A stretch of 20,277 bases of DNA from a virus, in IMG/VR virus record IMGVR_UViG_3300025480_000017. The stretch is one strand, 5' to 3'. Below, one piece after another: positions 310 to 20,034 of this stretch. A program made the translations under genes and the position numbers. Under the pieces are notes generated by a model. That model made no database searches, was not told the DNA's origin, and worked only from the letters and a program-made list of their open reading frames with translations. The stretch's first letter is position 1; each line of letters opens with the position of its first letter.

Positions 310-513
310 ATGAAAATCGACTTCCAAGACGGCCCAGATCACCTCAACATTCAACCCATGCCCAACCCGAAACCCTTGACCGTAGAACGAGTTATTATCA
401 AAGAGGATCACACAGACAAAGGCGGAGCAGGAGAAGAGTACGGGTACATCCGTAATGCTTCTATTCATCCTAGCGCGATTGCGGAAAGGCGGGCCTCTAT
501 CTGCGCGCCCTGA
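310..513 (+). CDS. Hypothetical protein whose 3' end runs into the foreign high-GC insert
   Basis: SD AGGAGA at 298-303 precedes ATG 310 (MKIDFQDGPD...). The last ~10 codons lie inside the GC-rich segment. Confidence 0.55.
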   Translation: MKIDFQDGPDHLNIQPMPNPKPLTVERVIIKEDHTDKGGAGEEYGYIRNASIHPSAIAERRASICAP

Positions 514-563
514 CCGAGGGACTCTTCGCCGGATCGGAGCGGCAGCCGGAGCTGCGCGCGCGT
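492..563 (+). pseudogene. miaA: Internal fragment of tRNA dimethylallyltransferase (miaA)
   Basis: Reads GLYLRALTEGLFAGSERQPELRAR, matching the MiaA GGTGLYLRAL..GL segment. About 70% GC, no start or stop. Confidence 0.75.
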
Positions 564-704
564 CAGGAACTCGTTGGCCGAGTAGACGCCATTCAGGTGC
601 TCGCCGGGCACATTGAGGAAGACCGGCAGACCGGCGCCGGTGGCCACAAAGACCGCGTCATAGCCCTCGTCGCGCATCAGCTCGTCCAGCGTGACGCTCT
701 TTCC
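558..704 (-). pseudogene. gltD: Internal fragment of NADPH-dependent glutamate synthase small subunit / SudA-like flavoprotein
   Basis: Reads GKSVTLDELMRDEGYDAVFVATGAGLPVFLNVPGEHLNGVYSANEFLTR, a hallmark GltD/SudA segment. Similarity stops after EFLTR, where VNL is expected. Codons have high GC at third positions. Confidence 0.9.
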
Positions 705-763
705 GGTGGCGGGGGCATTCGCGGGCAGGATGTTTAGGCAACTAATTTTGATAGGGGACCAAT

Positions 764-1078
764 TTGATTACGAAGACAACAAAAACGACTCTGCAATGCA
801 CGTGCGAGAAACCAAAGTGTGGAAAGTCTTGGGAATCGCAAGGTGAGGATATTCCTGAGCGCTGCCGATGGTGCGGAAGTCACACATGGAACGGCCAAGA
901 TTTGAGAAACAGCAAGATTTTCCTGTCCGCCTTTGGAATAACCCAGTCTATCTCTGACTGGTCAAAACAAACAGGTATCAACAGCCAAGTCATTCGCGCT
1001 AGAATAAGGCTAGGGTGGAAGGAAGATGATATTGTCACTCTTCCTGTCGGGCAAGTGAAAAAATCAAAGAAGGGATGA
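764..1078 (+). CDS. Zn-ribbon protein with a C-terminal HTH-like module of the type appended to phage endonucleases
   Basis: CTCEKPKC..W......PERCRWCGSHTWNG, then FGITQSISDWSKQTGINSQVIRARIRLGW. TTG start with AGGGGA SD. Confidence 0.7.
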   Translation: MITKTTKTTLQCTCEKPKCGKSWESQGEDIPERCRWCGSHTWNGQDLRNSKIFLSAFGITQSISDWSKQTGINSQVIRARIRLGWKEDDIVTLPVGQVKKSKKG

Positions 1079-1082
1079 GTCT

Positions 1083-1268
1083 ATGTTCACTCCTGAACAT
1101 CTTTTCACATTTCTCGGTTGGACGATGGTAACTTGTGTTGCTGTTTTCTACCTTGCCGATCCCGTGATCCCTTGGGAGAAAATAGCAAAAAGAGTTGTCT
1201 TGTTTCTTGCTGTCGGAATCATTGTTCTGTTTCTAGGATCATTGATTGTTGATTTTCCCGTAAAGTGA
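1083..1268 (+). CDS. Small membrane protein with two hydrophobic segments
   Basis: Hydrophobic runs LFTFLGWTMVTCVAVFYL and VVLFLAVGIIVLFLGSLIV. Tightly packed with neighbouring genes. Confidence 0.65.
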   Translation: MFTPEHLFTFLGWTMVTCVAVFYLADPVIPWEKIAKRVVLFLAVGIIVLFLGSLIVDFPVK

Positions 1269-1576
1269 GGTCAATCATGCACTTTGTCAAGGAAATAGCA
1301 AGGAACCTCGTAGCTGAGTTGGAGTATGAACCTCTTTCCTGTGATCCTGATGCCGCTAGGAACTTCAAGAAGATTGCAGTACAAGACTACGTGAACTTTT
1401 TGAAACAGGCTCCTGAACGTTCACCCGCAACCAATAACTGTGCCTTGGAGACTGTCTATATTTATTTCCATCGCGCAGTCAAAGCTGGAATACCAGAATC
1501 ACGTATGGATAAGTATTTCTATCTCCTACGCGCCTACTGGATTCCGAAACTAAGGTACAACAATGTTGCCACCTGA
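1265..1576 (+). CDS. Hypothetical protein (start may be ATG 1277)
   Basis: GTGA overlap with the previous stop, and overlaps the next gene. Confidence 0.65.
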   Translation: MRSIMHFVKEIARNLVAELEYEPLSCDPDAARNFKKIAVQDYVNFLKQAPERSPATNNCALETVYIYFHRAVKAGIPESRMDKYFYLLRAYWIPKLRYNNVAT

Positions 1577-1904
1577 AATCAACATCCCCATCGAATGCTC
1601 AAAGCCCGGATGCACCGTAATCCGAAGAACAGTCAACAACTGGTTTGTAGTTGAGAAAACCAAGAGCGGAGCACACATCCACCGCTGGCACGACTGCCCC
1701 GACAAGGCAATGATGAATGGAAAACACGTCTGCGGGTTGGAACACGCATTCTACTGTGCATCGAACATGATGACTCCCGACACTACAGACGCTAACCGTG
1801 AGTCTACGCTTGTCCTAGCGCCTCCCCTAACGCGGGAAGGTGTCGCAACACCACCACCGGCTCCTGTTGCGGTCGTAGAGGAAACAGAGGAGAAGCAAGC
1901 ATGA
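1563..1904 (+). CDS. Cys/His-rich hypothetical phage protein, probably Zn-binding
   Basis: CSKPGC...NNWF...HVCGLEH..C. Ends in an ATGA overlap with the next gene. Confidence 0.7.
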   Translation: MLPPEINIPIECSKPGCTVIRRTVNNWFVVEKTKSGAHIHRWHDCPDKAMMNGKHVCGLEHAFYCASNMMTPDTTDANRESTLVLAPPLTREGVATPPPAPVAVVEETEEKQA

Positions 1905-2128
1905 TCCTCGGTCAAGTCAATATGCTTGCTAATCATTACCAGTGTAATCTTTGTGCTTACGATTGGTATAGCATTGCAAAACGTATTCCTGATTCCTGTC
2001 CGAATAGGGATTGCCGCAGCCGTGAGTGGAACGGGAAGAAAAAGAAGCGCATTCCCGCTCCGAAACCAAAAATTGAACTTCCCAAACCGACTAGGAAACG
2101 AATAGAGGATGTAGATGATGAATTCTGA
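1901..2128 (+). CDS. Small Zn-ribbon protein with basic then acidic tail
   Basis: CNLC..DW......PDSCPNRDCRSREWNG, tail ...EDVDDEF. Confidence 0.75.
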   Translation: MILGQVNMLANHYQCNLCAYDWYSIAKRIPDSCPNRDCRSREWNGKKKKRIPAPKPKIELPKPTRKRIEDVDDEF

Positions 2129-2200
2129 AAGTAGATTTAGCTGGTGGGATGTTTTTCTCCTTATCGGATGTGTGATTTTCCTTGTTTGTATGGAGGCGCT

Positions 2201-2365
2201 ATGACATTCGACGAAATAGAAAAACTAAATAACGAGGCATGGCATAGAGGATGTCCGTTTATTCAAACAGACCACACAACTCTAAAAACTGTTTCTCCTA
2301 CGGTGTTCCAAGAAGAGCGGCAAAGGATAGAGTTGTTGAAAAGTTCTAAAATCCTATCCGAATAA
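2201..2365 (+). CDS. Hypothetical protein
   Basis: GGAGG at 2192-2196 before ATG 2201, preferred over GTG 2144. Confidence 0.6.
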   Translation: MTFDEIEKLNNEAWHRGCPFIQTDHTTLKTVSPTVFQEERQRIELLKSSKILSE

Positions 2366-2374
2366 GGAAAATCT

Positions 2375-3025
2375 ATGACAAAATGCTTTGTCTACCTCAG
2401 AGTGAGCGGAAAGAGCCAAGTTAAGGGCGACGGCTGGCTAAGGCAGTTCATCGCTTGCCGTGAAATTGCCAAGTCCAAGAACCTCCAGATTATCCGCATC
2501 TTCCGTGAAAAAGGAGTCTCAGGGACCACGGAACTTGAGGATCGCCCCGCTCTCTCCGCCCTCTTTGCTGCTCTGGAAGAAAACGGAGTAAAGACAGTTG
2601 TAATCGAGAAAGTCGATAGGTTGGCTCGTGACCTCATGATCCAGGAGACCATCATCGGCGATATGCTCAAAAATGGCTATGCGCTGATTTCATCCTGTGA
2701 GCCTGATCTTTGCTCTTCCGATCCTAGCCGCGTCCTAATCCGGCAAATCTTTGGCGCACTGGCGCAATACGACCGTGCCATGATTACATTGAAGCTACGC
2801 AGCGCAAGAGAACGCATTAGGGCAAGAGAGGGGAAATGTGAAGGCCGTCGAGCTTTTGGTTATCACGAAAAGGAAAAACCCCTTCTCGCTAGGATGATTC
2901 AGCTTAAATCTGAGGGACTTAATCCTGAACAGATTTCTATAATTCTGAATAACGACGGAATCCTAACGCGATACAGAAAAATATGGTATCCGGCAACTGT
3001 GGCAAAGATTCTCAAAAGGAATTGA
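2375..3025 (+). CDS. Serine recombinase (resolvase/invertase family) with a short C-terminal recombinase-type DNA-binding region
   Basis: YLRVS catalytic motif, EKGVSG, VEKVDRLAR-like motif (IEKVDRLARD), FGALAQYDR helix, and C-terminal LN..GI.TR....W..ATV..IL. Confidence 0.92.
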   Translation: MTKCFVYLRVSGKSQVKGDGWLRQFIACREIAKSKNLQIIRIFREKGVSGTTELEDRPALSALFAALEENGVKTVVIEKVDRLARDLMIQETIIGDMLKNGYALISSCEPDLCSSDPSRVLIRQIFGALAQYDRAMITLKLRSARERIRAREGKCEGRRAFGYHEKEKPLLARMIQLKSEGLNPEQISIILNNDGILTRYRKIWYPATVAKILKRN

Positions 3026-3068
3026 AAACTTCGGCAGATTCCTGCGCTTTAACATTTGTACACATTTG

Positions 3069-3107
3069 AAAATTGAGGGACCAGAGATTAACCGGCCCCT
3101 CAATTTT
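3069..3107. terminator. Bidirectional intrinsic terminator between convergent blocks
   Basis: AAAATTGAGGG (3069-3079) and CCCTCAATTTT (3097-3107) form an 11-bp inverted repeat with A/T runs on both sides. Confidence 0.75.
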
Positions 3108-3110
3108 TCC

Positions 3111-3860
3111 CTAAAACGGCTGCAATTCATCTTCCTCAACTGGCTCAGGAACCAATTTCTTTGGACGACCGCGCTTCTTTTCTTCCTTTGCGCCCTCAGA
3201 TTCGTGAAACGCTTTCAATTCTTTTGGACCGCTCTTTCCTTTTGGCTCTTCTTCCCACTCTGGTTCCTCTGGAGTGTCCAATTCAGGATCGAATTCCTCT
3301 CCCTCTGGAATTAAATCTGCCGTCAATTCAATCAAAGTTGGATCGGCTGGCAATTCCAATTCAGGGAAAACCGGATTCTTCTTCTTAACCAGAGATTCCG
3401 CAAACATTTGTAAATCCCTTTTCCAAGTCCCATTACGGCGCACAACATCAATAAACTCGCTTACGTCGTGAGCGCGTATCCTCCACACTCTACGGTTCTT
3501 TTCGTCAATCTTAGGCTCACCCTCAGAATCGTAGGCCATTGCCGCGTGGGACATTTCGTGATCGATAAGTGCTTTCTTCATATCCGCAGTGAATTGCAAA
3601 TCTCTCCAGATTTCCTTATTGAGAAGGATAATGAAGTCCAGATCGACAAATTCCCTCTGCAAATCGGACGCTTTCACGCATTGCCCAAGGACAATATGAC
3701 CCTCTGGGTCCGGTTTGTACCCTTTCCTCCACGCTAAGGCAATTCGTGCCTCTGCGGTGTCTGGATGGTAGTCTCTGCGAACTTCCCGTAGAATCCTGTA
3801 CGGTTCGGTTTCTGGTTCGCGCTCAATCAATTCAAATGCGATTTTCTTTGGCTGTCCCAA
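3111..3860 (-). CDS. Putative phage metallopeptidase with acidic tail and AT-hook-like motif
   Basis: ALIDHEMSH (HExxH) followed by WRIRAHDVSEF, typical of the putative phage metallopeptidase family. KKRGRPKK near the C-terminus. Confidence 0.8.
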   Translation of the reverse strand: MGQPKKIAFELIEREPETEPYRILREVRRDYHPDTAEARIALAWRKGYKPDPEGHIVLGQCVKASDLQREFVDLDFIILLNKEIWRDLQFTADMKKALIDHEMSHAAMAYDSEGEPKIDEKNRRVWRIRAHDVSEFIDVVRRNGTWKRDLQMFAESLVKKKNPVFPELELPADPTLIELTADLIPEGEEFDPELDTPEEPEWEEEPKGKSGPKELKAFHESEGAKEEKKRGRPKKLVPEPVEEDELQPF

Positions 3861-3883
3861 TTTTTTATCCTTTCAATTTCAGA

Positions 3884-4009
3884 TTACACGAAACGACAAA
3901 CACCAGCACCACGGATTCGATGACACAGTTCGCATAGATCAATACTTTCAACCCATCTTTCAAACTGACCAACTTTGCCAAAAAACCACCTCTTAATACG
4001 TGTGAACAT
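3884..4009 (-). CDS. 41-aa hypothetical protein, absent from the ORF track
   Basis: GGGGAGGGGAA SD then MFTRIKRWFFGKVGQFERWVESIDLCELCHRIRGAGVCRFV*. Fills the operon gap. Confidence 0.6.
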   Translation of the reverse strand: MFTRIKRWFFGKVGQFERWVESIDLCELCHRIRGAGVCRFV

Positions 4010-4020
4010 TTCCCCTCCCC

Positions 4021-4581
4021 TCAAAATCTCCCCAAACCGCTCTCTTTCGCCTTTTTCCTATCGCGCCTAGCTTTTTGCACTTGACCCCACGCGCCTGACT
4101 TCTTCAATTCGTTTTTCACGGCCATATCCGCTCTTGCCCCGGCTGCTAGTGCTACTGCCTTTTGTAACCTTGAGAGAACGTCCTGACGCGCTAAGGGAAT
4201 CTCTTTTTCCAAGAACTCAATCAGCTTTAGGAACTCGTCAACAGTTAGAGAACCTTTACATTGATTGCAGCGCTGGCACGGGTAATCAAGGTTTGATAAT
4301 CCTGTCTTCCCACCACGACTTAACGGTTGAGCATGATCGACTGCAACATCCTCGATTCCAAAGAACATTTTGCAGTACCGGCATACAACGACCCCATCTT
4401 CCTTCCCGCCCAATACTCCCAAAACATCTTCTCTAAAAGCGTCAAGATCGAAGTCTAAAGGCGGTAATCCTTTTTTCTTCAACCTCTCAACCATTCCAGA
4501 ATAACGGGAGCGCGTAACGTCCATAAACGTCTTATGAGCGTCCCTTGGAAATAAAATTCCTATGCCGATAAGTTTTGCCAT
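4021..4581 (-). CDS. HNH endonuclease (McrA-like, Zn-binding)
   Basis: CRYC...DHAQPLSRGG.....NL...CQRCN..KG. Confidence 0.9.
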   Translation of the reverse strand: MAKLIGIGILFPRDAHKTFMDVTRSRYSGMVERLKKKGLPPLDFDLDAFREDVLGVLGGKEDGVVVCRYCKMFFGIEDVAVDHAQPLSRGGKTGLSNLDYPCQRCNQCKGSLTVDEFLKLIEFLEKEIPLARQDVLSRLQKAVALAAGARADMAVKNELKKSGAWGQVQKARRDRKKAKESGLGRF

Positions 4582-4590
4582 GAAAACAGT

Positions 4591-6498
4591 TTAGCACGGA
4601 TTAACCAATTCCTCCACTGTGCCGTTCTCCACATAAAAGTACCGGCTTCCAGGCGCTTGCGGACTCGGAAGCGTCTTGTCCAAACTGAAGCCAATCATAA
4701 TGGCTTGCTCCAACTTTTTTGACTGGATTAGCCGGTAGCAAGTAGAGTAAAGATTTTGACGGATGTCCTCACCCAACTCCTCGACCTCATCAATCACCAC
4801 CAAACCGATTCCTGCCGCGATAGATACCGCACACTGGAAAGCAACCTTGAAGATATGTTCCTCAGCCCCAGATAGTTCCTTTACAGGACCAGCGTAGCCC
4901 CTCTTAGTCGTGACCTCAAAGGCAAACGGGTCCATCGTTAGAGAAGCCTTGTACCCCCAAGCCGATAGGACAGAGTTGATTTTATCCTCGAATCCTCCAA
5001 TATGTTTCTTAATCAACTCTGCCTTGATTCCGTCCTTGTCAAACCATTTAACTAGCATATCCAGCGTAGTAGCCTTCTTTTGCAACTTTCCTAGTTGCTC
5101 AGTCAGACGCTCTCGTTCCTTCGATCTCTCCTCAGCCGCAATTACAGGACGCAACTGCTCACTTACTTTATCCTCTTCGCTTTGGAGTTTTACCAAAGGA
5201 TCGTTAAACGGTAGAGTAGCGTTTACCGCCTCTCCTAGCGCGTTAAGTTCCGCTCTGGTAGCCTTACCCGTCTCGACTGTCTCAGACAAAGACTTCTCAA
5301 TCTCAGATTTTTCCTTGACAGCCTCGTTGTGCCTTTGAATGGACGATAAAGCACTTCCTACGTCTCCTATCGACTCAATTTTCTTATCGGTATCCTGAAT
5401 CTTTGCATCGGCGTCGGCATACTCTTTCTTCAAATCGGCTATCAGTGATGCAATCTTTACACTGTCAATGTCTTGATCGCACGTCGGGCAAGTAGAGCCT
5501 TGCTCGGATATTCTCTCAAAACGTCCTATCTGCACGTCTATAGCAGAGAGCAAGTTTCTCAAATCTGTGTGACTCTTTTGGAGTGTTGCCAACTCATCTT
5601 TCCTCGCCGCCAATAACGAGTATCCTGCCAACTTCTCAGGCGCAAGGATGCGAGTCTCTACAGAAGCAAGTTTTTCCTTGTTCCTCTTCAAATCCGCTTG
5701 CAGACCTTCGATCTTGGTCTGTAGCTTTCCGCGTTTAACCTCAATCTCGTTAGCCGCCGCTACCGCCGCGTCCCTCTCCGCTTGCAGTTTCGTCCGCTGT
5801 TCACGAATATCTGTTAGCTTGGTTTGAAGAGATACTGAGTCAACTCCTTGCGGAATAGGTAAAGCGTCAGGAATCGTAAAATCCTTAACTTGTCTATTTA
5901 CGGTTTCACGCATCTTATACAGTGCTTTGTATGCAGCGGTGATTACATCGAACGGCGCACCATTGAAGTCTATTGGCGTGTCAAGTAATCCGTTTACCGC
6001 TGTTACTTTGTCTTCGGGGAAGTCGTGATGTGCAGGAAGCACCAGTTTCGCAATAAGGTTCGTCTGTTCCTTATCGTCTTGACGGCTAAAATGGTCCGTA
6101 TTTGTCGCAATCAGAAGAGCAGGTTTTCTGTCCTTCAGGAAGTTACTAAACCCATTGACAATCTTGTTATCATCGGGTTCGTCCAAGCACTCTACATCTG
6201 ATGTACGGCCCGAAGTGTTGGTATTCAAAATTACTGTGTTCCGCAGAAGATGCTTTCCCTGAATCTCTGCCGTGATTACCGCTTTCGCGTCTCCAGTCCT
6301 AATCTTGGACACAAACCCCTTACCTTGGTTATCTAACCCCATTGTAGTGTTTGTGAGGTTTACCGAAATACTCTGTCCGATAGACGATTTTCCTGATGCG
6401 TTAGCGCCCCGGACCACGACCAGCGATGCTCCCGTAAAATCAAGCAATGTATCGGCGTGATTTCTGTACGACTGGATACGTAGTTTTCCAATTTTCAT
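4591..6498 (-). CDS. Rad50/SbcC-like SMC-family ATPase with zinc hook
   Basis: Walker A GANASGKSS, long coiled coils, central CPTC hook, LSGAE signature, VVIDE Walker B. Confidence 0.9.
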   Translation of the reverse strand: MKIGKLRIQSYRNHADTLLDFTGASLVVVRGANASGKSSIGQSISVNLTNTTMGLDNQGKGFVSKIRTGDAKAVITAEIQGKHLLRNTVILNTNTSGRTSDVECLDEPDDNKIVNGFSNFLKDRKPALLIATNTDHFSRQDDKEQTNLIAKLVLPAHHDFPEDKVTAVNGLLDTPIDFNGAPFDVITAAYKALYKMRETVNRQVKDFTIPDALPIPQGVDSVSLQTKLTDIREQRTKLQAERDAAVAAANEIEVKRGKLQTKIEGLQADLKRNKEKLASVETRILAPEKLAGYSLLAARKDELATLQKSHTDLRNLLSAIDVQIGRFERISEQGSTCPTCDQDIDSVKIASLIADLKKEYADADAKIQDTDKKIESIGDVGSALSSIQRHNEAVKEKSEIEKSLSETVETGKATRAELNALGEAVNATLPFNDPLVKLQSEEDKVSEQLRPVIAAEERSKERERLTEQLGKLQKKATTLDMLVKWFDKDGIKAELIKKHIGGFEDKINSVLSAWGYKASLTMDPFAFEVTTKRGYAGPVKELSGAEEHIFKVAFQCAVSIAAGIGLVVIDEVEELGEDIRQNLYSTCYRLIQSKKLEQAIMIGFSLDKTLPSPQAPGSRYFYVENGTVEELVNPC

Positions 6499-6513
6499 AG
6501 TTCCCTCTCCATA

Positions 6514-7587
6514 TTAAAACTCAAGAAACGAACGGTAATTAAATCCTTTTTCTTTGATACGCGTAAGATACGCAATTATCTCATCCTTGTTTTTGAAAAC
6601 AAAAACTCCTTTTTCTGCTTCTAGCTTAACAATGTTTTCTCTCGCAAACATCGCTTCCTTGTAATCTCGTCCTCCATCATTGTCTGGAATATAGTATCCA
6701 AGATCAAACGTGTCTTGAAGCGGATTTCCTGTCCATACTCCATTTTCATATAGATCGTCACGAGGAATATCTTTACCGTTAATCTGTAAAGAATACTCAT
6801 ACCTACTACTCTCTTGCATTTCAGGCTTTGTATTCAACATCCTCATAGAATCGCTTGGAGATTCATCATAGCGATTCATCTCCTCTACAATCGCTTGAAG
6901 CATATCGAACGTAAAACTGTCGAACATTACAGATAAAGTGTATAGCTGATCTATATATTGTTTATTATTTAGTCTTTCTTCGCAGTATTCTCTGATGAAC
7001 TCTGCGCTAATACCATTATACTCCAGTAGATAGAATATCCTACCGGGACGGTTTCTCATGTGAACATCAATACGCCATTTATCGTTTGTCGTTAGAATAT
7101 ATAGCTTCTTTCCTCCATAAACACCGTCCAAGAGCGTCAATATATTTTCCTGATCGTCTTTGTCAAACACCTTCTCAAATTCATCAAATAAAATAATGCA
7201 AGGTTGCGTGATGGTGTCCAAAAACGTATTGAAAGCATCTCCACTGTGCGGAGCGTTGACAATAATAGTAGGAATTCCTTTCTCTGATCCTTTACTGCTA
7301 ATTAGTTTCGATAGCATTGTCTTTCCGCTGCCCTTACTCCCGCACAACAATACTCCCGTCGTTCCACTCCGTTGAGCAAACGTATTTAGAATACGTTTTG
7401 CATCTTTTGTATGAGTTCCATATATCTTACTCGGAATGGTAAAATTTTCCATCCCTTCAAGATAAAATGCACCATATTGATCTTTTTTCACAACATAGTT
7501 AGCTGGTGGTAGTAATTCGTGTAGGTCCATAGCCTCACTAGAACTTACACGAAATTCATTTCCATGCTTCAAAAAATAAGTAGCCAT
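6514..7587 (-). CDS. AAA+ family ATPase
   Basis: Walker A GSKGSGKT, Walker B ILFDEFEK, LLTLLDG-like region, ILTTN sensor 1, RPGR arginine finger. Confidence 0.9.
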   Translation of the reverse strand: MATYFLKHGNEFRVSSSEAMDLHELLPPANYVVKKDQYGAFYLEGMENFTIPSKIYGTHTKDAKRILNTFAQRSGTTGVLLCGSKGSGKTMLSKLISSKGSEKGIPTIIVNAPHSGDAFNTFLDTITQPCIILFDEFEKVFDKDDQENILTLLDGVYGGKKLYILTTNDKWRIDVHMRNRPGRIFYLLEYNGISAEFIREYCEERLNNKQYIDQLYTLSVMFDSFTFDMLQAIVEEMNRYDESPSDSMRMLNTKPEMQESSRYEYSLQINGKDIPRDDLYENGVWTGNPLQDTFDLGYYIPDNDGGRDYKEAMFARENIVKLEAEKGVFVFKNKDEIIAYLTRIKEKGFNYRSFLEF

Positions 7588-7596
7588 TTCCTCTCC

Positions 7597-8976
7597 CTAA
7601 AACTCTTCATCAAATTCGTTATCGCCATCCTCATCAAACTCTTCCGGCAAACTATCAAGTGGCTTGGAAACTTTCATCTTCACCTTCGGTACTTTGTCGG
7701 CCTTATCTTGAACACTTTGGTCGAGAAAACTTCTTTTCTTCGCTCCTAGTTTGCTGTTAAGCTCCGTAGACGAAATTACCAGTTTCCCAAACCAGTCTGT
7801 ATCCTTTACGTTCCCCTCTGCGTAACTCATCAATTCATCGACGATTGGAAGGATTGGAACTACCTTACGATCTTGGCAGGTAGGGCATAGACCGTCTTCG
7901 GGGACATAGTCAAATACCCCTCCACAATCGCACCGCGTTGCTATGCTCTTCCCTGTACCGTGGAACAATGGGTAGACACTGGACTCGGTTTCGTTTGGAC
8001 CATAAACATACGCCTTTCCGTTGTAGTCACGAAGCGTAATGTTCTTTCCCGTACCCTGCACAAGTGCTTTCATCCTAGCGCGATTGACCTTGCTAAACGC
8101 CGAATAAAACAGATCGAACTTAACCCACTCTTCTGGCGACAATTGCATCATCGGATTAAAACTGGCGATAGGACACTTGAGGTTCGATAACAAAGGGCAG
8201 TAGATGCAGTTGTCATTCGAGATAGCCTCTATTTCCTCGCCGTTATCAAACTTTTGGTGTATCAACTTCTGACGCTCACGCGCAGCTTTCAATCCTTCGA
8301 TAAGTTTTGGTAAATCCTCTCGCGTGTAGATCGATTCCCTGTGGAGATTTTTATATCGAACGAAGGTTAGACGGAATACAACCGTCTGTACCCACGGGAA
8401 ATGAATCAAAATAAAAGTTGCATACTCATCACCCTGAGCTTTATACTTCGGATCGCTCGGATCATAAGGTTTAATATGGGATTTGAAGTCCGATATAACT
8501 ATCTTCGATTCCTCGCGGAACACATAAAACCCGTCGAGCGTTCCCTGATAAACAGCCGGTAAACCGCTGCTCTTGACAACCCCTTCCATCACCTTAGCTA
8601 TGTCGGTAGGACGGAAATACTCATCCAACGCCATACTAATTTCCGTTGCAAACAAATGCTGATGGTCCACAATGTAGCCGTCACGGAGTCCTGAAAGAAT
8701 CTTGTACGCTTGCGTTCCTGCTCCATGCGAAAACTTTTCAAAGGCGTATAAATCCATCCCCACTTGCTTCCTAGCGCAATGAGACAGGTACTCAGCCATC
8801 GTCTTATGGATTTCAGTTCCTCGCGCCGCATCTAAGCCGCTAGGAGGTTTGTTGCCTTTAATAAATATCTCCGCATACATTAACGGACACGACATTGTAG
8901 AAATTGTCGATTGTCTCAAAGGAGGAATGGGACTCGGTGTAATCTGTACCAATTCGGATGATTTTCTCTTTGGCAT
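7597..8976 (-). CDS. PD-(D/E)XK nuclease of Cas4/RecB/AddB type with probable Fe-S cysteines and an extra Zn ribbon
   Basis: SCP near the N-terminus, RGTEIH, GTLD, ISDFKS, CIYCP....KC. Additional CDC...CPTC, and an acidic tail. Confidence 0.85.
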   Translation of the reverse strand: MPKRKSSELVQITPSPIPPLRQSTISTMSCPLMYAEIFIKGNKPPSGLDAARGTEIHKTMAEYLSHCARKQVGMDLYAFEKFSHGAGTQAYKILSGLRDGYIVDHQHLFATEISMALDEYFRPTDIAKVMEGVVKSSGLPAVYQGTLDGFYVFREESKIVISDFKSHIKPYDPSDPKYKAQGDEYATFILIHFPWVQTVVFRLTFVRYKNLHRESIYTREDLPKLIEGLKAARERQKLIHQKFDNGEEIEAISNDNCIYCPLLSNLKCPIASFNPMMQLSPEEWVKFDLFYSAFSKVNRARMKALVQGTGKNITLRDYNGKAYVYGPNETESSVYPLFHGTGKSIATRCDCGGVFDYVPEDGLCPTCQDRKVVPILPIVDELMSYAEGNVKDTDWFGKLVISSTELNSKLGAKKRSFLDQSVQDKADKVPKVKMKVSKPLDSLPEEFDEDGDNEFDEEF

Positions 8977-9191
8977 TATGCAACTCTCCTAATCATCTTC
9001 ACACCCCTAAACGGAGTAATCGTTATTCTCCGGTCCTGATGCGAACGGGAAAAATCGTCTATTCTGCTACGGATGTTCGCGTAGGTACGTGACGTGCAGA
9101 ATAATCCTCCATCCCCTATTACTAGGTTCCTGAGTGCTACCTCTACCATACCCTTCGGCTTACGGGGTGTCGCTGGCTTGCGGTGTCTCAT
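8976..9191 (-). CDS. Small basic hypothetical protein
   Basis: TAATG overlaps with both neighbouring genes. Confidence 0.7.
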   Translation of the reverse strand: MRHRKPATPRKPKGMVEVALRNLVIGDGGLFCTSRTYANIRSRIDDFSRSHQDRRITITPFRGVKMIRRVA

Positions 9192-9721
9192 TATTCCTCC
9201 AATACTACCCTGTCTTCATTATCTCGTTCGCAGTCATCCATTCGCCAAAACCTGAAACTCAAACCAGGATGCTGATTCGCTAGTTCTATGTGGGTATCTT
9301 GAGCGTGAAACCTTACAGAAACAGGCAATCCCTTGAATGAATCCCACACCTTACGAATCAGCGTATGAAATGTTTTTGGTTCATGTAGTCCTACGTTTAC
9401 TGCATTGACTCCCCACTCTGTCAAGTCTCCTGCTATATGTGGAGTCATCCTAGTTCCATTCGTGTAGAGTACGATAAACTTTCCTTTAGACCTCATGCAA
9501 ATTTCTCTCACGCGGTCAAGAAATAGAAGCGGTTCACCTCCAGATATACAAACCACTTTGTATTGATCGAAGTCCAATTCATCTAAGTTTACAGGACGAA
9601 TAGACTGTCTAATCTCAGGAAGTGTATCGTTGCAGCAGTATGAGCATTTAAGATTACACTTCCATGAGACAAGAACTCGAAGAGTGTCCTTTTTTACGAT
9701 TGGAAGAACATCACCCATCAC
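9191..9721 (-). CDS. Small radical SAM protein (NrdG/QueE-like size)
   Basis: CNLKCSYC (CxxxCxxC), SGGEP, YTNG. GTGA/TGATG overlap with the upstream stop. Confidence 0.9.
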   Translation of the reverse strand: MMGDVLPIVKKDTLRVLVSWKCNLKCSYCCNDTLPEIRQSIRPVNLDELDFDQYKVVCISGGEPLLFLDRVREICMRSKGKFIVLYTNGTRMTPHIAGDLTEWGVNAVNVGLHEPKTFHTLIRKVWDSFKGLPVSVRFHAQDTHIELANQHPGLSFRFWRMDDCERDNEDRVVLEE

Positions 9722-11190
9722 TTTCCTCCATGCAACCGATTCCTAATCTCCGCAAGAGTTTCGTTGCGAACCATCTTCCCATTGAGGAATACCGGCTTTA
9801 ACTCTCCACCATTTTCCTGTTCTTTCGTTTGATGGTCATAAAGAACATAGTGATCGTTTTCTTTCTCCACTCGAATCAATCCACACGCAGACTTCTTAGT
9901 TCCATTATCCGTCTTCGGGTCTTTGAAAAGCTCTCTTTCCTCTCCGTTCACAACTCCCCATGTAGCCTTAATAGCTGTTCCGAAAGTGTCACGGCTTACC
10001 ATCTGGTAGGTAAATGATCCTATGCCGAATACGATATTCGCAGAGGAAAACCCTTTGAGTGCTAAACCTTTCAAGATAGCCTGTGCGCGTTCAAGAGAGA
10101 TAGAGTCACCATAAATCAATCCAACGTGACTGTCAAGGGTTTTATATCCTGTCGGCGTAGTGGTTCCTCCAAATACTTCCCAAAGACATTCGACGGCTCC
10201 CTTGTACTCTGGAGAACCTACTGGTTCGCTTGCATCCCCAACGATGATCTTTACAGGATCGCCGGAGTCAGGACGAAATACAACTTTTCCGTCACGCGCA
10301 AGAATAACGTATTTCAGTTGAGCAGCAGTATCAGCGAGTACGTGCCAAAAATCCCATGTGTCGCTCACAATACTGACAATCCCGTTTGGATATGTTTTTG
10401 TAATCAATCTCCTGTATGTTTCAAACTCTCCGTCTTCTCCACCCATGCACATCACTGAATGCTCTGTTGCTGGTACGCTACCACCAATTAGACCTTCACC
10501 ACTGTAGTAATTTTCAAGGTAGTCGATTGCCGCAATGGTGTCTGTTCCCGTAAAAGAAAGTAAATGTCCTGCCCCAGACTGAGAAGCATCCGTAATTCCA
10601 GACATTCCACGGAAAGAGAAATCGTGTCCCTGCCACTGGACAAAACTCTTGTCGATTCCTGTTTCCTCTGCATAAAAGTCAAACAATCTACGATACTCAT
10701 AGGCCGTAGTCGCCGAAGTCATTGCCTTCCATAACTCTGCCGATAACTGAGTCTCCACATAGTTAGTCATCCAAAAGAAACGTGGATCAGTATTGATAAT
10801 CGTAAACATAGGAACACGAATATCAACCCTTGATCCTTCTGGCAATGCCTTAATCAGTAATGGCAAGTATCCTAAATCGTGCAAATCGGCAATGTGTTGC
10901 ACATCCACTGCTCCCGGTCCAAGGCAAGAATCCATGCGCCGCTTGTAATACGCAACGACTTCATCCTTTGGCCTCTCGAAAAACTCTCGTTTCCATAAGT
11001 CAATCAACAGCCATTGGCAAACACCTTGCAAACCAAAGAACACTACTTTGTGATCGAAGTCTGGTAGTGTATGCGCCCATCGGTCACTGCGGCACGTCCA
11101 GTTAGAATATACGTATTCCGTAAACTGAGGATATTGCGCGTAGTGGCCGGATTTATAAAAATCTGTGGCGTGAAGTGGATTGATTCTCAT
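9718..11190 (-). CDS. nadV: Nicotinamide phosphoribosyltransferase-family protein; likely the Namat of NARP1
   Basis: TDFYKSGH, HDFSFRG, SVPATEHSVM, SIVSDTWD, FRPDSGDP, IYGDSI, FGIGS, FKDPKTD. True start ATG 11190 with AGGAGA SD. Confidence 0.93.
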   Translation of the reverse strand: MRINPLHATDFYKSGHYAQYPQFTEYVYSNWTCRSDRWAHTLPDFDHKVVFFGLQGVCQWLLIDLWKREFFERPKDEVVAYYKRRMDSCLGPGAVDVQHIADLHDLGYLPLLIKALPEGSRVDIRVPMFTIINTDPRFFWMTNYVETQLSAELWKAMTSATTAYEYRRLFDFYAEETGIDKSFVQWQGHDFSFRGMSGITDASQSGAGHLLSFTGTDTIAAIDYLENYYSGEGLIGGSVPATEHSVMCMGGEDGEFETYRRLITKTYPNGIVSIVSDTWDFWHVLADTAAQLKYVILARDGKVVFRPDSGDPVKIIVGDASEPVGSPEYKGAVECLWEVFGGTTTPTGYKTLDSHVGLIYGDSISLERAQAILKGLALKGFSSANIVFGIGSFTYQMVSRDTFGTAIKATWGVVNGEERELFKDPKTDNGTKKSACGLIRVEKENDHYVLYDHQTKEQENGGELKPVFLNGKMVRNETLAEIRNRLHGGK

Positions 11191-11607
11191 TTGTTCTCCT
11201 TTTTCGATACCGTTGTTCTTGCCACTCACTTTGACAAATGCCGGGTAGTTGTTGGCAATAGGCAAAAGAATACTCCCAAAGTAACGTGCCCACATTGCGG
11301 GTTTATTGGACAAAAAGGTGGGGCGATGAACTTGTTTCATTTTGAGAACTGCCCTTCAATCACCGGAGAAAAACGAACCCCGAATCGAGATTACGATAGA
11401 ACTATTGGAACCTGTCCTCATTGCGGTTTCATAGGGTCGGAACACGGTTTACAATCTCGCCATTACGACCGATGCCCTAGCCTTAAACCACATCTACCAA
11501 AAATTCAATGCCCTCACTGCCTCAAAGAAGGAAACGATAACAATTACTTCAGATGGTGGCATTTCGATAATTGCAAAATGCGTCAAATGACAGTTAACAA
11601 CGGGTGA
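11191..11607 (+). CDS. Antisense protein with tandem CPHC-x(11-13)-H-x3-C zinc fingers; start uncertain, possibly 5'-truncated
   Basis: Three full fingers (11287-11352, 11413-11475, 11509-11574) plus an orphan HFDKC (11227-11241). CPHCGFIG is encoded twice with six third-position differences and no amino-acid change. Confidence 0.7.
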   Translation: MFSFFDTVVLATHFDKCRVVVGNRQKNTPKVTCPHCGFIGQKGGAMNLFHFENCPSITGEKRTPNRDYDRTIGTCPHCGFIGSEHGLQSRHYDRCPSLKPHLPKIQCPHCLKEGNDNNYFRWWHFDNCKMRQMTVNNG

Positions 11608-12383
11608 TTGAGGTCCACGGTCGGCCACGGATTAGCCGTGTAAATACCATCTATCAATCCAGTGCAGACATCTAATCCCTTACTGGCGATCAGATGAGTT
11701 ACATACAAGTAGATTTTCCCATTCGTCTTTTTTCTTAATTCTTTTGAGAGTTCCAGAAATGTTCGTAATCCGTCCCCTATATCATCTACCATCAAAAAGT
11801 CTTTATCTCCAATATGTTCCGAGTAAACCGTTGTTCCGGTAATTGAACCATCCTCTACGCTGCGTATCTTGTCAGCCCTAACCATAGGTAATCCTAGCGC
11901 CTTGGCCGTTTCCATAGTCTTCTTAATTGCTCCTGCATCTGGAGCAACAAGAACCGTGTTCTTCCAGTTGATTCGGCCAACAAATACCCTCTGATGCGTG
12001 TTGTAGACGTTATTCAAAAGAGCTAAAGATACGTCACTGTGAACGTCCCAAACCGTCACTGCTGCAAACTTTAGGCCATTCATAATATCGCACATCACCT
12101 TGAGTGCTAGGGACTCTCCTGACGCGCACACACGATCCTGACGCGCATAAGGAAGATAAGGACATATCAAATCAATCTCAATCTCTCCCCCTGCTGTACG
12201 ACGCAGCGCATCTACCAATAGGACAAGCTCCATGATGTTGTCGGATGAGGTTAGGTCGGCACGGATATAAACCAGTTCTCCGTTGCCAACCACATCTAAC
12301 ACTTTAGGCTGGAGTTCTCCACCAGAAAACCTAAGCAGAGAATACGGTACTATTCTTTTCTCTTCTGTTGTGATTTCAAACAT
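11583..12383 (-). CDS. prs: Ribose-phosphate pyrophosphokinase-like protein; likely the ADPR-PP synthetase (Adps) of NARP1
   Basis: RFSGGE, PYLPYARQDR, DVHS, VAPDAGA, KIRS, MVDDIGDGLRTF, VTH. Short (266 aa) and directly upstream of the Nampt homologue. Confidence 0.9.
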   Translation of the reverse strand: MFEITTEEKRIVPYSLLRFSGGELQPKVLDVVGNGELVYIRADLTSSDNIMELVLLVDALRRTAGGEIEIDLICPYLPYARQDRVCASGESLALKVMCDIMNGLKFAAVTVWDVHSDVSLALLNNVYNTHQRVFVGRINWKNTVLVAPDAGAIKKTMETAKALGLPMVRADKIRSVEDGSITGTTVYSEHIGDKDFLMVDDIGDGLRTFLELSKELRKKTNGKIYLYVTHLIASKGLDVCTGLIDGIYTANPWPTVDLNHPLLTVI

Positions 12384-12406
12384 TTTTCCTCTCCCTATCT
12401 CTTTTT

Positions 12407-12466
12407 AATGCGCGGCCCAGAAACGTATCTCAGAGCCACCTTCGACCAATGTCCAGACCGCGCATT
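12407..12466 (-). promoter_or_regulatory. 15-bp RNA hairpin in the leader of the prs-like gene
   Basis: AATGCGCGGTCTGGA pairs with TCTGGGCCGCGCATT using three G-U pairs that form only on the sense (-) strand. Confidence 0.55.
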
Positions 12467-12496
12467 TCTCCCTCTTCCGCCGAAGATGGAAGGTCG

Positions 12497-12583
12497 TTAT
12501 CGTTGACGGTAGTAGTCGTACAACCCGTACATAAATACCAGATAGCCGAATACTAACAACCCACCAATGATGTTATCAACCAT
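12497..12583 (-). CDS. 28-aa single-pass membrane peptide, absent from the ORF track
   Basis: TGATG overlap with the SPFH stop. MVDNIIGGLLVFGYLVFMYGLYDYYRQR*. Confidence 0.55.
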   Translation of the reverse strand: MVDNIIGGLLVFGYLVFMYGLYDYYRQR

Positions 12584-13446
12584 CAATGTCTCCCCACATC
12601 AACTACCGGAGATGGACCATTGCCTATAAAGAATGTGCAGTTTCCTTTTTGCCATGCACAAACGTCGCGCTGCATCTTGATCCGCTCCAGTTGCAGGAAC
12701 TGGTCGGGAGAAAGTTGCATAGCTTCTCGGTATGCGTTATCCGCAGCGGCTCTACTTTGCTCTGCCGCTTTGCGCTGGTCCTCAGCGAGTTTCGTCTGCT
12801 GCTCGGTAATGGCTCGTTGCTCCTGAGCGGCAGTCTCAATACGCTGATTCTTGATTGCATCAGGAGGGTTGACTTTTCCTACGTTCAATCCTCCCGGAAT
12901 AAATACAATCGGAACTCCTGTTTGCTGGACAATCTTGATTGCAGCAGCGGAAATCTCGTTCCCTACTTGATCGGCAGCAGTCTGCGAGATAGCCATCTCC
13001 TGCATATCGCGCTTCTTTACGGCATCACGCACAGCAGTACGAAGTGGTTGGTCAATGTTACGTGTCCAAAACTCCCACCCTCCAAGATTTCCATTGGAAT
13101 CCTTGTAGCGATCTGCTCCAAATTGACTTACCAATTTTACGGCGTCAATCACACGAAATGTGGCTACGACGTGAAAACTGACCGGAACACCGCTGCTGGT
13201 CATCATGTCGTCAAATTCCATGTCAACCCGCTGCGGAAGCATATCAACATCAACCGCATCCGTCGTGATTGCCGCGTAAGAACGTCCCGCAGTAACCGGC
13301 TCCTGATCTACTCCGCCATGCCCGAAAAACATGGGCTTCTCAACCCACACTTGCTGGTGTCCTGCATCTGGAGACGCAACCGAAAAACATCCAGTCATTC
13401 CAAATACAAACACTGCTGATAACATCAAAACAAATACTGTTCTCAT
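12583..13446 (-). CDS. SPFH/band 7/prohibitin-family lipoprotein
   Basis: Signal peptide with lipobox (FGMTGC), DMMTSSGVPVSFHV, a coiled-coil AxxAE-rich tail and a typical ...IERIK C-terminus (LQLERIKMQ). Confidence 0.85.
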   Translation of the reverse strand: MRTVFVLMLSAVFVFGMTGCFSVASPDAGHQQVWVEKPMFFGHGGVDQEPVTAGRSYAAITTDAVDVDMLPQRVDMEFDDMMTSSGVPVSFHVVATFRVIDAVKLVSQFGADRYKDSNGNLGGWEFWTRNIDQPLRTAVRDAVKKRDMQEMAISQTAADQVGNEISAAAIKIVQQTGVPIVFIPGGLNVGKVNPPDAIKNQRIETAAQEQRAITEQQTKLAEDQRKAAEQSRAAADNAYREAMQLSPDQFLQLERIKMQRDVCAWQKGNCTFFIGNGPSPVVDVGRH

Positions 13447-13472
13447 TTTCCTCTCCCGGTTAATGGTTTTCG

Positions 13473-14639
13473 TTAAAACGCAAATTGTGTAGATTGTCCT
13501 GTTTGCTCTGGTTCACTCTCTTGCACGGTTTGTACAGGTTGTGCTTGCGCCTCAGGTTGTGCTTGCGCTGCCGCTTCTTCTCTCGCCTTACGTGCAGCCA
13601 TCTCTTCCCTTGAAGGCCGTCCAGGTCCACGCTTTTTTTCTACTTCCTGTGCGCTCTCGGTTTTTGCTTGCTCTGTGCTTACCGATGCTTGCTGTTTCGG
13701 CGGGTCTGCTTGCGTGGTAATCGTAATCGTAGGAGCCAACTTGTTCTTCAGTGAGTTTACAAGCTCTTGCCGTGCGCCGCGAGGAATATAACTCTCTCGC
13801 AATGCTTTCCTCTCAGCAGAATTCTTGCCTAGCTTGTCAAACAAATCCTCAAGCTCTTGCTCTGCCGGATCATTCACGTTAAACGCCGACGAATCCCCAC
13901 CGGATTCCAAGTCTCCCTTGAGCGCCATGTCAATCGTAAGATTCTGACGGCCTTCCGTAGCTGTAATATCAAGCGCAGATGCACTTGCAAGTTCAATAGA
14001 CGAAGGAAGGTATTTGATGACTTGAAGAAGGGGAATCTTTCGTGCATACATTTCTGGATGCGCGTAGGAATAATGCCTGTCTCCTACCTTGTTCTGTTTA
14101 TTCCTATGCGCCCATATCTTATCAATATCCCATACATCAACTTCTGGCCATGTTTCAGATTGGGAAATCCCTTTGATATATATTCTTCCTACAGCGTAGG
14201 TATACATCATCGCGCCTTTTTCACCTGACCACTTTCCGGGCTTATGATGGACAAATGGTTTATCACCCTTTGCGTAATCAAATTCATCCCCATCATAAAC
14301 CGCCCCTGTACCTGCCCATGCTCTTTCGGTGCGGTTTACAAGGTCCATATACCCTCTCCAACCAGGAACCAATGTACATACGTTACCATAGGGGATCAAA
14401 TAGCACTGACCGTTAATCCCCGGCTCAAATCCCAACTGTGATGCTGCCATCATTGAACCAAAGAACGACTCACGAGTGCAGTTCATCAGCTTTGGGTTAA
14501 TGCGCAAGGACGTAAGGGCTATTCTTGCCATCCTGTCCGCTGTCATGTGTTTGGGAAGGGCTGCTTCCATCTGAGTCTTGTACTTTTGAAGTTCTGATCC
14601 AATTGTTTTAGGATCAATGATTGCCAAATCAGTTGCCAT
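13473..14639 (-). CDS. recT: RecT-family single-strand annealing protein with a long disordered C-terminal extension
   Basis: ALPKHMTADRMARIALT, CTRESF..SMM.ASQLGFEP, CYLIPY, GWRGY..L, V..GDEF.Y, MYARK. Confidence 0.93.
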   Translation of the reverse strand: MATDLAIIDPKTIGSELQKYKTQMEAALPKHMTADRMARIALTSLRINPKLMNCTRESFFGSMMAASQLGFEPGINGQCYLIPYGNVCTLVPGWRGYMDLVNRTERAWAGTGAVYDGDEFDYAKGDKPFVHHKPGKWSGEKGAMMYTYAVGRIYIKGISQSETWPEVDVWDIDKIWAHRNKQNKVGDRHYSYAHPEMYARKIPLLQVIKYLPSSIELASASALDITATEGRQNLTIDMALKGDLESGGDSSAFNVNDPAEQELEDLFDKLGKNSAERKALRESYIPRGARQELVNSLKNKLAPTITITTQADPPKQQASVSTEQAKTESAQEVEKKRGPGRPSREEMAARKAREEAAAQAQPEAQAQPVQTVQESEPEQTGQSTQFAF

Positions 14640-14730
14640 TTATTTCTGCTACCTTTCTAGTGTGCAAAAGTGAGCACACTGGTTAGTTCCTGCTTCTTCC
14701 AAACCGCAGTACACCTATTTTAGACCAGAG

Positions 14731-14988
14731 TCAAACTCCTACCCATACGTTAGGAGTGTCTGTTACGCGCTGCTGGATTTCGGCTAGCGCCTTGTCACTC
14801 TCTGCTGCCAAAAGCCATTGAAAGTAATCACGCAAGGCGCAGATCGCGTCTTGGTGCGACAGTTTGTTCCACTGTTCTACTTTATCAAGCACAATACTTA
14901 TCGCTTGACAGGTTGTCGCACACCTTATCAGTTGCTCTTGCAGTGGCGTCTGTGCCTTCTCCGCCTCAGTCTGTTGTTTTCTTGGCAT
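14731..14988 (-). CDS. Hypothetical protein
   Basis: SD GGAGAGG upstream, and co-directional packing with neighbours. Confidence 0.65.
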   Translation of the reverse strand: MPRKQQTEAEKAQTPLQEQLIRCATTCQAISIVLDKVEQWNKLSHQDAICALRDYFQWLLAAESDKALAEIQQRVTDTPNVWVGV

Positions 14989-15211
14989 TGTTCCTCTCCC
15001 GATTGACTACCTTACAAGACTCTTGCGGATTTAATCCCAAGGATTCCCTAATAGCGTTTACAATCGAAATCGCTCCAATCAAAGAAGATGGAACCGTGTT
15101 TCCACTCAGGTCTATTGTTTTCAAAATAGTTCCACTGCTCGTATGGACTTCAAGAGTCGCTACACACGTCTCTCCGTGATGCTGATAATACATTTGAACG
15201 TTGTCTATCAC
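14966..15211 (-). CDS. Hypothetical protein, first gene of the leftward operon
   Basis: GTG start preceded by GGGAGAGG. No HTH signature. Confidence 0.65.
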   Translation of the reverse strand: MIDNVQMYYQHHGETCVATLEVHTSSGTILKTIDLSGNTVPSSLIGAISIVNAIRESLGLNPQESCKVVNRERNNAKKTTD

Positions 15212-15237
15212 GTTATCCTCTCCCGATTGCTAAAAAC

Positions 15238-15265
15238 ACTCTAAACCTTTTTTTTGCGCTTGTCA
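15238..15265 (-). promoter_or_regulatory. Leftward sigma70-type promoter
   Basis: TTGACA (15265-15260), 16-bp spacer, TAGAGT (15243-15238). Confidence 0.55.
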
Positions 15266-15419
15266 AGCATTATTTTCAGAAAATCCATGAATTTTTATGT
15301 CGTTTGTTTTCTACTACTTACGATTTTTACGGATTTTTCAAAGATCGTTTTTCCTGGCCGCATAGGAATTTCTAGAAAGCGCAGAATAATGATTCTAAAT
15401 GGCTTGCGAAAGATTTTGC

Positions 15420-15448
15420 TTGACAAACGGACAGCAGTTCGGTATGGT
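15420..15448 (+). promoter_or_regulatory. Rightward sigma70-type promoter
   Basis: TTGACA (15420-15425), 17-bp spacer, TATGGT (15443-15448). Confidence 0.6.
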
Positions 15449-15464
15449 TGATTTGTCTAACAAT

Positions 15465-15720
15465 CCCTGCGCAGGGGGCGTTAGATGTCCTTGTTGACTA
15501 TTCGCATCCGCAAAAGGTATAGGGGCCGTTCCTCAAGCGGCCCCACCCGCCGCATCGAATATCTATAAGGATTTCGGCTAGAGGCGGATTTAAGCGTAAT
15601 AGTCGGCTTATCACCGACAGAAAATTGAGGTTTTACTATGTCTGTCGCTCTATATGGGGCGGCGCAGACCGTTGTTATTTCTGCGTCTAAAATAGCTATT
15701 ACTTTAGGAGGAGATAGATA
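15465..15720 (+). promoter_or_regulatory. Structured 5' leader of the replication operon
   Basis: Hairpins at 15522-15544, 15547-15587, 15602-15618, 15615-15647 and 15662-15686, plus a 12-bp palindrome at 15465-15476. Confidence 0.55.
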
Positions 15721-15721
15721 A
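15638..15721 (+). CDS. Putative 27-aa leader peptide coupled to the initiator
   Basis: TGAGG SD at 15626-15630. MSVALYGAAQTVVISASKIAITLGGDR*, with the stop overlapping the initiator start as TAATG. Confidence 0.4.
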   Translation: MSVALYGAAQTVVISASKIAITLGGDR

Positions 15722-18397: not shown

Positions 18398-18407
18398 GAG
18401 AGGAAAC

Positions 18408-18605
18408 ATGGAAGATACAACAATTTCACGCGACAGAGATTGTATGCCTAACGCCCGCGAAATTGCGAGCGAAAGCGATTTTCAAAAAGCGAAGGAACGA
18501 GGAGAAAGATTAGGCTTCAAAGATATTTTTCTTGACTCTTTTATTGAAAGAGAGTTGATAATGATGCAGAAGTGGAATAATCGAAGGTTGTACGAAAAAG
18601 GATAA
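18408..18605 (+). CDS. Hypothetical protein
   Basis: GGAGAGG SD before ATG 18408. The longer ORF-track call overlaps the helicase. Confidence 0.6.
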   Translation: MEDTTISRDRDCMPNAREIASESDFQKAKERGERLGFKDIFLDSFIERELIMMQKWNNRRLYEKG

Positions 18606-18610
18606 CCACA

Positions 18611-18790
18611 ATGCCAATTATCCGTCGCAAGAAAACAGGTGGACGAATAACGCATCCCATCATTAAAGCGTTCGTTCAAAGGTATAACTTGACAGAAAAA
18701 CAGAAAGAGTTTTTAATAAAGAATATCGTCCAAATATCGCTTTGTCATGGGGAAGAAGAAAGACGCTTAATTCTGGGAGTAAGCGCCTAA
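18611..18790 (+). CDS. 59-aa basic hypothetical protein, absent from the ORF track
   Basis: AAGGA SD, MPIIRRKKTGG...LGVSA*. Fills the gap. Confidence 0.55.
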   Translation: MPIIRRKKTGGRITHPIIKAFVQRYNLTEKQKEFLIKNIVQISLCHGEEERRLILGVSA

Positions 18791-18823
18791 TATACGGGAA
18801 CTATGATTCAAGGGAGAGAAAAA

Positions 18824-19318: not shown

Positions 19319-19551
19319 TTGAACTTTACCGGCCACAACTCAAGGAAGAACTGCTGGAGTTGGTTCATAAACCAATTATCCAAAACCTTTTATACGACGC
19401 CGATCTTTTACCTGAGCAGCTTTCTGCGCAAAAGGAAATGACGGTAGGACTATTTGCAGCGTACAATCGACTTGAGGGCGTCCTGTTGGCGTTTAAGTAC
19501 CTTGAGTTGCAGGGTATCAATATCGAATCAGATAGTGAGGTGTCCGCATGA
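19315..19551 (+). CDS. Hypothetical protein
   Basis: ATGA overlaps at both ends. Confidence 0.7.
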   Translation: MIELYRPQLKEELLELVHKPIIQNLLYDADLLPEQLSAQKEMTVGLFAAYNRLEGVLLAFKYLELQGINIESDSEVSA

Positions 19552-19838: not shown

Positions 19839-19840
19839 TT

Positions 19841-20032: not shown

Positions 20033-20034
20033 CG

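Follow-up and report, generated by a model that had tools for sequence, protein, structure and literature searches.

An island of bacterial DNA (490–729) lies between two phage genes, ORF310 and ORF764, near the start of the analysed window, which is the whole 20,277 nt stretch of IMG/VR virus record IMGVR_UViG_3300025480_000017. ORF310 (310–513, plus strand) consists of 61 native codons (310–492) followed by six codons and a stop that are supplied by the host patch. ORF764 (764–1078, plus strand) comes next after the scar; this conserved phage gene encodes 104 aa from a TTG start, and its product resembles the zinc-ribbon and DNA-binding tail of HNH endonucleases (PHROG 3377 at 1.4e-9) and is 64% identical in amino acids to a 110-aa gene of the related contig L045. 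The phage genes of the window include a RecT-like annealing protein, a PD-(D/E)XK exonuclease, an SbcC-like ATPase, an HNH endonuclease, a primase/helicase, a replication initiator, a small serine recombinase and Nampt-like and Prs-like genes. The only recombinase among them is a 216-aa protein of the resolvase/invertase type encoded 1.6 kb from the patch. No ligase or polymerase is encoded in the window, and a scan of its whole length gave no Rfam matches and no tRNA.

The phage population derives from peat soil. The window starts (1–141) inside a 21-bp tandem repeat that encodes the 7-residue repeat GDVSGLT, and sister contigs break at the same position within it. The contig of the relative L001 (5680–5845) also ends in a 21-bp repeat, one that encodes a different peptide (ENSSVVA), and repeat number is probably variable or limiting for assembly. 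Upstream of ORF310 lies a structured RNA whose base arms (139–164 and 259–290) match contig C308 (L135) of the bacterial metagenome-assembled genome (MAG) introduced below. The matching C308 segments, 2722–2753 and 2820–2845, are identical to the arms at 32/32 and 26/26 positions and enclose a different middle part. C308 is 3.4 kb long with 53% GC, contains small ORFs only, gave no Pfam or PHROG matches and looks like another phage or prophage fragment that was binned with the host.

The island is set apart by its base composition. GC content is 69.2% at 490–729 and 45.5% over the whole window, while other 240-nt sliding segments average 45.1% (sd 3.9, maximum 57%), placing the island at z = 6.1. 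A GC-rich island had been called at 482–705 in a first-pass annotation made from the sequence alone. The island itself is borne out but both of its edges were shifted: the left edge lies at 490/493, positions 482–492 being the phage's own ORF310 codons outside the host patch, and the right edge lies at 729. Frame 3 of the plus strand encodes a MiaA-like peptide (containing GLYLRALTEGLF and, further along, PELRAR), and the minus strand encodes a GltD/SudA-like peptide (GKSVTLDELMRDEGYDAVFVATGAGLPVFLNVPGEHLNGVYSANEFLTR). Three host fragments make up the island. Fragment 1 (490–562, plus strand, sense) is a 73-nt internal piece of miaA, the gene for tRNA isopentenyltransferase. Fragment 2 (557–698, minus strand) is 142 nt long and corresponds to codons 226–273 of nfnB, a gltD/sudA-like NADPH oxidoreductase gene. 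Fragment 3 (694–729, minus strand) has the same orientation as fragment 2 and comprises 36 nt from codons 141–153 of nfnB, 217 bp further along the donor gene. The two genes of the mosaic had been named correctly at first; the third piece at 694–729 was overlooked, and the number of junctions is four rather than three. Repeats inside the patch amount to three 8-nt pairs, none of which flanks a host piece. A 51-aa piece of the island gave no Pfam match, and among INPHARED phages the gltD-like piece matched three unrelated "Bacteriophage sp." faecal contigs at an uninformative 74–77%.

All three pieces were traced to a single donor, the Terracidiphilus-like Acidobacteriaceae MAG GCA_964450895.1 (G002). 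Searching proteins with the gltD-like piece gave several thousand matches, the best at 94–98% amino acid identity, and the named top matches were NADPH-dependent glutamate synthase (small-chain-like) from Terracidiphilus sp. or Acidobacteriota. The donor nfnB was then located through the DNA of the top protein match and the donor miaA by searching the whole MAG with the island. Positions 490–562 match, at 72/73, an ORF on G002 contig C40 that carries an IPPT domain (Pfam, 4.8e-79), and positions 557–698 match, at 142/142, a gene of 484 aa on contig C118, in agreement with the initial reading of a miaA piece on the plus strand and a gltD/sudA-like piece on the minus strand. Fragment 3 matches the same C118 gene at 35/36 in the window and at 36/36 in most sister contigs. 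The 484-aa protein contains Fer4_20 and Pyr_redox_2 domains and is encoded after a DHODB_Fe-S_bind gene, which is an arrangement of the NfnAB/SudAB type. Its nearest named relatives are in Terracidiphilus/Acidobacteriaceae MAGs (79–90% amino acid identity), several of which have isolate names referring to bog or peat; the donor MAG itself was not returned when a genome collection was scanned with NfnB. Because the two donor genes are intact, full-length and situated on different contigs, the direction of transfer was from host to phage.

Other genomes were considerably more distant. Among 30 relatives of G002 that were searched, the best identities were 86% for nfnB and 84% for miaA, and one metagenome contig reached 88%; one of the 30, the unpublished MAG G031, gave a weak 38-nt match only, which supports no claim. 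As the pieces match G002 at 72/73 to 142/142 and other species at 86–88% at most, the donor belonged to the G002 species or was a strain very close to it. The donor strain itself was not recovered, since position 534, in the miaA piece, differs from the MAG by one base in every phage contig. At 99.6–100% identity to one MAG, the pieces are recent host DNA, as had been supposed, whereas the accompanying expectation of a high-GC host was only loosely right, the donor contigs having 58–61% GC. No other match to the donor genome was found anywhere in 730–20277. Metagenome scans with a miaA 38-mer (Y at the variant base) and with an nfnB 55-mer able to detect phage-host hybrids both gave 0 matches.

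The junctions were defined at nucleotide resolution. The register of J1, from phage to miaA, was set by aligning the window, the donor and the relative L001, which placed a CGG overlap at 490–492 with an imperfect GCGGAA match just upstream. At J2 the sequence passes from miaA to the first nfnB piece with inversion of orientation across CGCGCG at 557–562, an overlap between miaA and the gltD-like gene that the first-pass annotation had placed exactly. J3 joins the first nfnB piece to the second through an ACGCT overlap at 694–698, where 217 bp of the donor gene are skipped. J4 (729/730) returns from nfnB to an AT-rich phage spacer that reaches 763 and includes the ribosome-binding site of ORF764. 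The first 17 nt after J4 (730–746, 29% GC) are unplaced in origin and are probably diverged phage spacer. When random joins were simulated with the actual donor and phage sequences, chance produced an overlap of 6 nt or more in only 0.3% of joins, of 5 nt or more in 0.9% and of 3 nt or more in 5% (p ~0.003, ~0.009 and ~0.05). With overlaps of 3, 6 and 5 nt at J1, J2 and J3, the joins are therefore taken to be microhomology-mediated, as had been proposed.

The junctions recur across assemblies. An assembly collection lists two ORFs that cross them, the exact 67-aa ORF310 product in 29 blocks and an exact 70-aa antisense ORF in 27, and 20 and 23 contigs, respectively, were inspected from these blocks. 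The contigs come from different samples in ENA and JGI and were built by MEGAHIT and SPAdes, so that the joins are not confined to one assembly but are found with two assemblers and in three sources. A neighbouring gene of 61 aa is listed in 83 blocks, and one contig with that gene was binned in an NCBI MAG. All 12 of the 12 loci fetched were >99.7% identical to the window over 1–1300. In IMG/VR, a junction 30-mer and ORF764 were not found and only one ORF310 relative was recovered. The alternative raised at first, that amplification by MDA or assembly had produced a chimera, drew on the fact that inverted microhomology joins are typical of MDA artefacts. The recurrence of the same junctions in these contigs, the binned contig and the polymorphism of the patch described below refute a chimera at the assembly level and leave it a practically negligible probability.

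The patch varies within the phage population and is already decaying. A deletion of 51 bp (502–552) segregates between 8-bp direct repeats of CTGCGCGC at 501–508 and 552–559; alignment placed it in four loci, the sister contigs L034, L035, L040 and L042. At position 702 most sister contigs have the donor base G where the window has T, from which it follows that the ancestral patch matched the MAG at 178/178 positions in nfnB and 72/73 in miaA, that is, with one difference in 251 bases. All four combinations of deletion state and the state of position 702 occur. The population is almost clonal (about 99.8%), and ubiquity or conservation of the patch is consequently no evidence for or against selection on it. 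A rough timing is given by the presence of the patch in every variant and by its ancestral form being one base off the MAG in 251.

Further variation was noted around the patch. At the start of ORF310, five linked SNPs within 40 nt (330, 333, 339, 363 and 369) are common to L034 and L037, and at position 315 the window has a base found in none of the seven sister contigs. These differences, together with the four combinations of deletion and position 702, suggest recombination within the phage population. Some sister contigs (L002/L034–L039) also have an extra gene of 121 aa between genes of 113/115 aa and 75 aa. It is absent from the window (1563–2128) and constitutes another indel polymorphism in the run of early genes.

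Comparison with related phages shows what normally occupies the site. Ten relatives of ORF310 are intact, encode 53–61 aa ending in HPSAIAERR, AEGR or similar before the stop, and lack host DNA. The patch had been described as interrupting ORF310, but it starts after the last native codon, codon 61, and replaces the stop only, adding six residues; in the deletion sub-lineage ORF310 extends to 74 aa (P0122), a gain of 13 residues. Homology to the relatives ends at 492 and resumes at about 747. In the relatives the next gene begins 4–5 nt after the ORF310 stop and opens a variable cassette of 2–3 kb, which is followed by the ORF764 homologue. This layout was read in the relatives with enough downstream data (L045, L046, L047 and a contig of ERZ1426849), the contigs of L001 and L044 ending soon after the first downstream gene. 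Cassette genes comprise a 125-aa gene, a NucA/NucB-like gene, DUF7666 and GmrSD_N. The cassette spans 4167–6482 in L045, 4167–6229 in L046 and 5181–5558 in L001; the 125-aa gene is conserved, the NucA/NucB-like gene lies on the opposite strand, a 251-aa protein and GmrSD_N (DUF262) are also encoded, and the content varies between relatives. No homologue of the cassette proteins was found anywhere in the window. The relatives that bear the cassette are only 67–82% identical to the window (80–82% for the closest), and no near-identical ancestor, whether empty or cassette-bearing, was found. As the cassette is present in relatives and absent here, the patch probably marks the junction of a deletion in a part of the genome that is plastic in this phage group: it stands in place of the 2–3 kb cassette, probably as filler. 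That the change was a deletion in this lineage, not an insertion in the relatives, is the direction we infer from this comparison.

Taken together, the island is best explained as the scar of an illegitimate, microhomology-mediated recombination between the phage and the host chromosome, to which we assign a probability of roughly 80%. Short templated pieces from two unlinked loci, a flip in orientation, overlaps at the joints and a probable loss of recipient DNA are the combination expected when microhomology-mediated repair inserts templated or filler DNA. The event would have begun with loss of the accessory cassette between ORF310 and ORF764 in an ancestor of the phage population, probably set off when a fork collapsed or a double-strand break arose in this non-essential region. 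The gap would then have been bridged by copies of host sequence, 73 nt of miaA and then, facing the other way, 142 and 36 nt of nfnB, presumably all within a single episode of break repair. Serial template switching of a 3' end across the 3–6 nt overlaps, in a process like MMBIR/FoSTeS, could have formed the joins; alternatively, fragments of host DNA released during infection may have been joined end to end. The joint between the two nfnB pieces (J3) possibly arose later, by slippage deletion within one longer captured piece. Afterwards the patch would have been passively carried and fixed in the population while eroding, and it is probably non-functional.

Which enzymes made the joins can be suggested only in outline. 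The RecT protein or the Cas4-like nuclease (PD-(D/E)XK) of the phage may, judging by the gene content of the window, have taken part. Overlaps of 3–6 nt are far below what annealing proteins normally require. The Ku family was not found in the donor MAG, which is weak evidence given that the MAG is incomplete. Templated or filler insertion is known mainly from eukaryotic and cancer genomes, with A-EJ in E. coli reportedly described by Chayot et al. in 2010, and a literature search on filler DNA, bacteriophage and microhomology returned nothing relevant.

A stepwise history is possible, though we hold it to be distinctly less probable than an even chance. The phage would first have acquired longer stretches of host DNA, one or two in number (395 bp or more of nfnB, for instance), and these would later have been trimmed by slippage deletions between short direct repeats, such that not all joints date from the original event. 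The same type of deletion segregates today, 51 bp having been lost between the CTGCGCGC repeats, and the two nfnB pieces are colinear, share one orientation and meet at a 5-nt direct repeat of the donor gene. Trimming accounts for J3 only, however, as the inverted J2 and the joints between phage and host still need illegitimate joining, and none of the 22 loci examined had a longer nfnB insert. More doubtful is that the patch has been retained for a function, either as a source of antisense RNA to host nfnB or as a 142-bp homology patch for recombination with the host, both of which the first-pass annotation had put forward. Between 310 and 3025 every gene lies on the plus strand, so the patch is probably co-transcribed, and read-through RNA would hold 178 nt (142 + 36) perfectly antisense to the donor nfnB mRNA. 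No contig of the population lacks the patch, the Nampt-like and Prs-like genes reflect an investment of the phage in nucleotide-cofactor metabolism, and a 142-bp match is longer than homologous recombination usually needs. Yet ubiquity in a near-clonal population is not evidence of selection, the 51-bp deletion and the SNP are tolerated, a scan for promoter and terminator consensus sequences found none inside the patch, and nothing comparable exists in any of the ten relatives. The miaA part is in sense orientation with no obvious use, and the one metagenome scan able to show a phage-host hybrid contig, that with the nfnB 55-mer, showed none. A functional patch of either kind is accordingly regarded as improbable. 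The narrower proposal, by which the patch is kept as a host-targeting antisense RNA against the message of nfnB (NADPH/ferredoxin oxidoreductase), transcribed by read-through from ORF310, is more improbable still. If it were true, a phage that rebuilds NAD+ would be tuning the redox-cofactor metabolism of its host, and this would be a natural phage antisense RNA against the host made from captured host DNA.

It had also been suggested that variable cargo at this site might reveal a dedicated capture system or a spacer-like memory. In such a system RecT, the PD-(D/E)XK nuclease and the SbcC-like protein would repeatedly load host fragments, and these recombination genes are indeed present in the window. 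One cargo only was seen, however, shared by descent in all contigs either intact or as its 51-bp deletion derivative; no repeats flank the pieces; their sizes (73, 142 and 36 nt) are heterogeneous and not those of spacers; the ORF310 relatives have no host DNA at the site; and the window contains no further DNA of host origin. We consider a system of this kind very unlikely indeed. Other classes of element were rejected on their layout. A CRISPR mini-array or spacer record would have a repeat-spacer-repeat layout, which is absent from a patch containing only three 8-nt pairs. An attP core does not fit matches that are internal to two unlinked genes, with no tRNA and with the resolvase/invertase-type protein as sole recombinase. 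An auxiliary metabolic gene or moron does not fit either, given that only codons 226–273 and 141–153 of the 484 in nfnB are present along with 24 codons of miaA.

The preferred reading, a microhomology-mediated recombination scar, was compared with known systems. MMBIR is polymerase template switching at microhomology that yields templated insertions (PMC8421209). The scar resembles the products of MMBIR/FoSTeS, or the filler DNA of alternative end joining, in having several short copies of distant sequence with a change in orientation, in the 3–6 nt overlaps at the joints and in a probable deletion at the recipient site. Copied segments, overlaps beyond chance at J1–J3 and several templates with a flip were all found here. 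The difference is that the recipient is a phage genome and the templates are host chromosome; copying and ligation leave sequences that are indistinguishable. Deletions at microhomologies are well known from non-essential parts of phage genomes, lambda under Cas12a being one example (PMC10132644), and are alike in the loss, probable here, of a non-essential block between conserved genes with short overlaps. The lambda deletions join phage to phage directly, whereas in the present case the joint is occupied by about 240 bp of host DNA; the secondary 51-bp deletion is in turn a textbook case of microhomology-mediated deletion in a phage. In morons, auxiliary metabolic genes and specialised transduction, host chromosomal DNA likewise enters a phage genome by illegitimate recombination. 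The captured pieces in this case contain no intact gene, being internal segments of 24, 47 and 12 codons that derive from two unlinked genes, one in antisense orientation, and cannot encode a working enzyme. The type of event, illegitimate capture of host DNA, is already known, and what is unusual is the host-derived filler and the unusually clear junctions.

The scar also has value for host assignment. As in host prediction by sequence match, a 142-nt exact and two near-exact matches link the phage to one MAG, but the shared stretch is a datable recombination scar and not a prophage remnant, tRNA or CRISPR spacer. The 142-nt exact match and the two further pieces connect this lineage of uncultivated peat phages with a Terracidiphilus-like species of the Acidobacteriaceae; to our knowledge, few or no cultured phages exist for such bacteria. 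Host gene fragments in viral contigs are, on this example, neither automatically assembly chimeras nor automatically metabolic genes. The locus provides a clean natural example of multi-template, microhomology-joined filler DNA in a phage, and indicates that phage genomes can be patched with fragments of the host chromosome and that such patches decay by slippage deletions.
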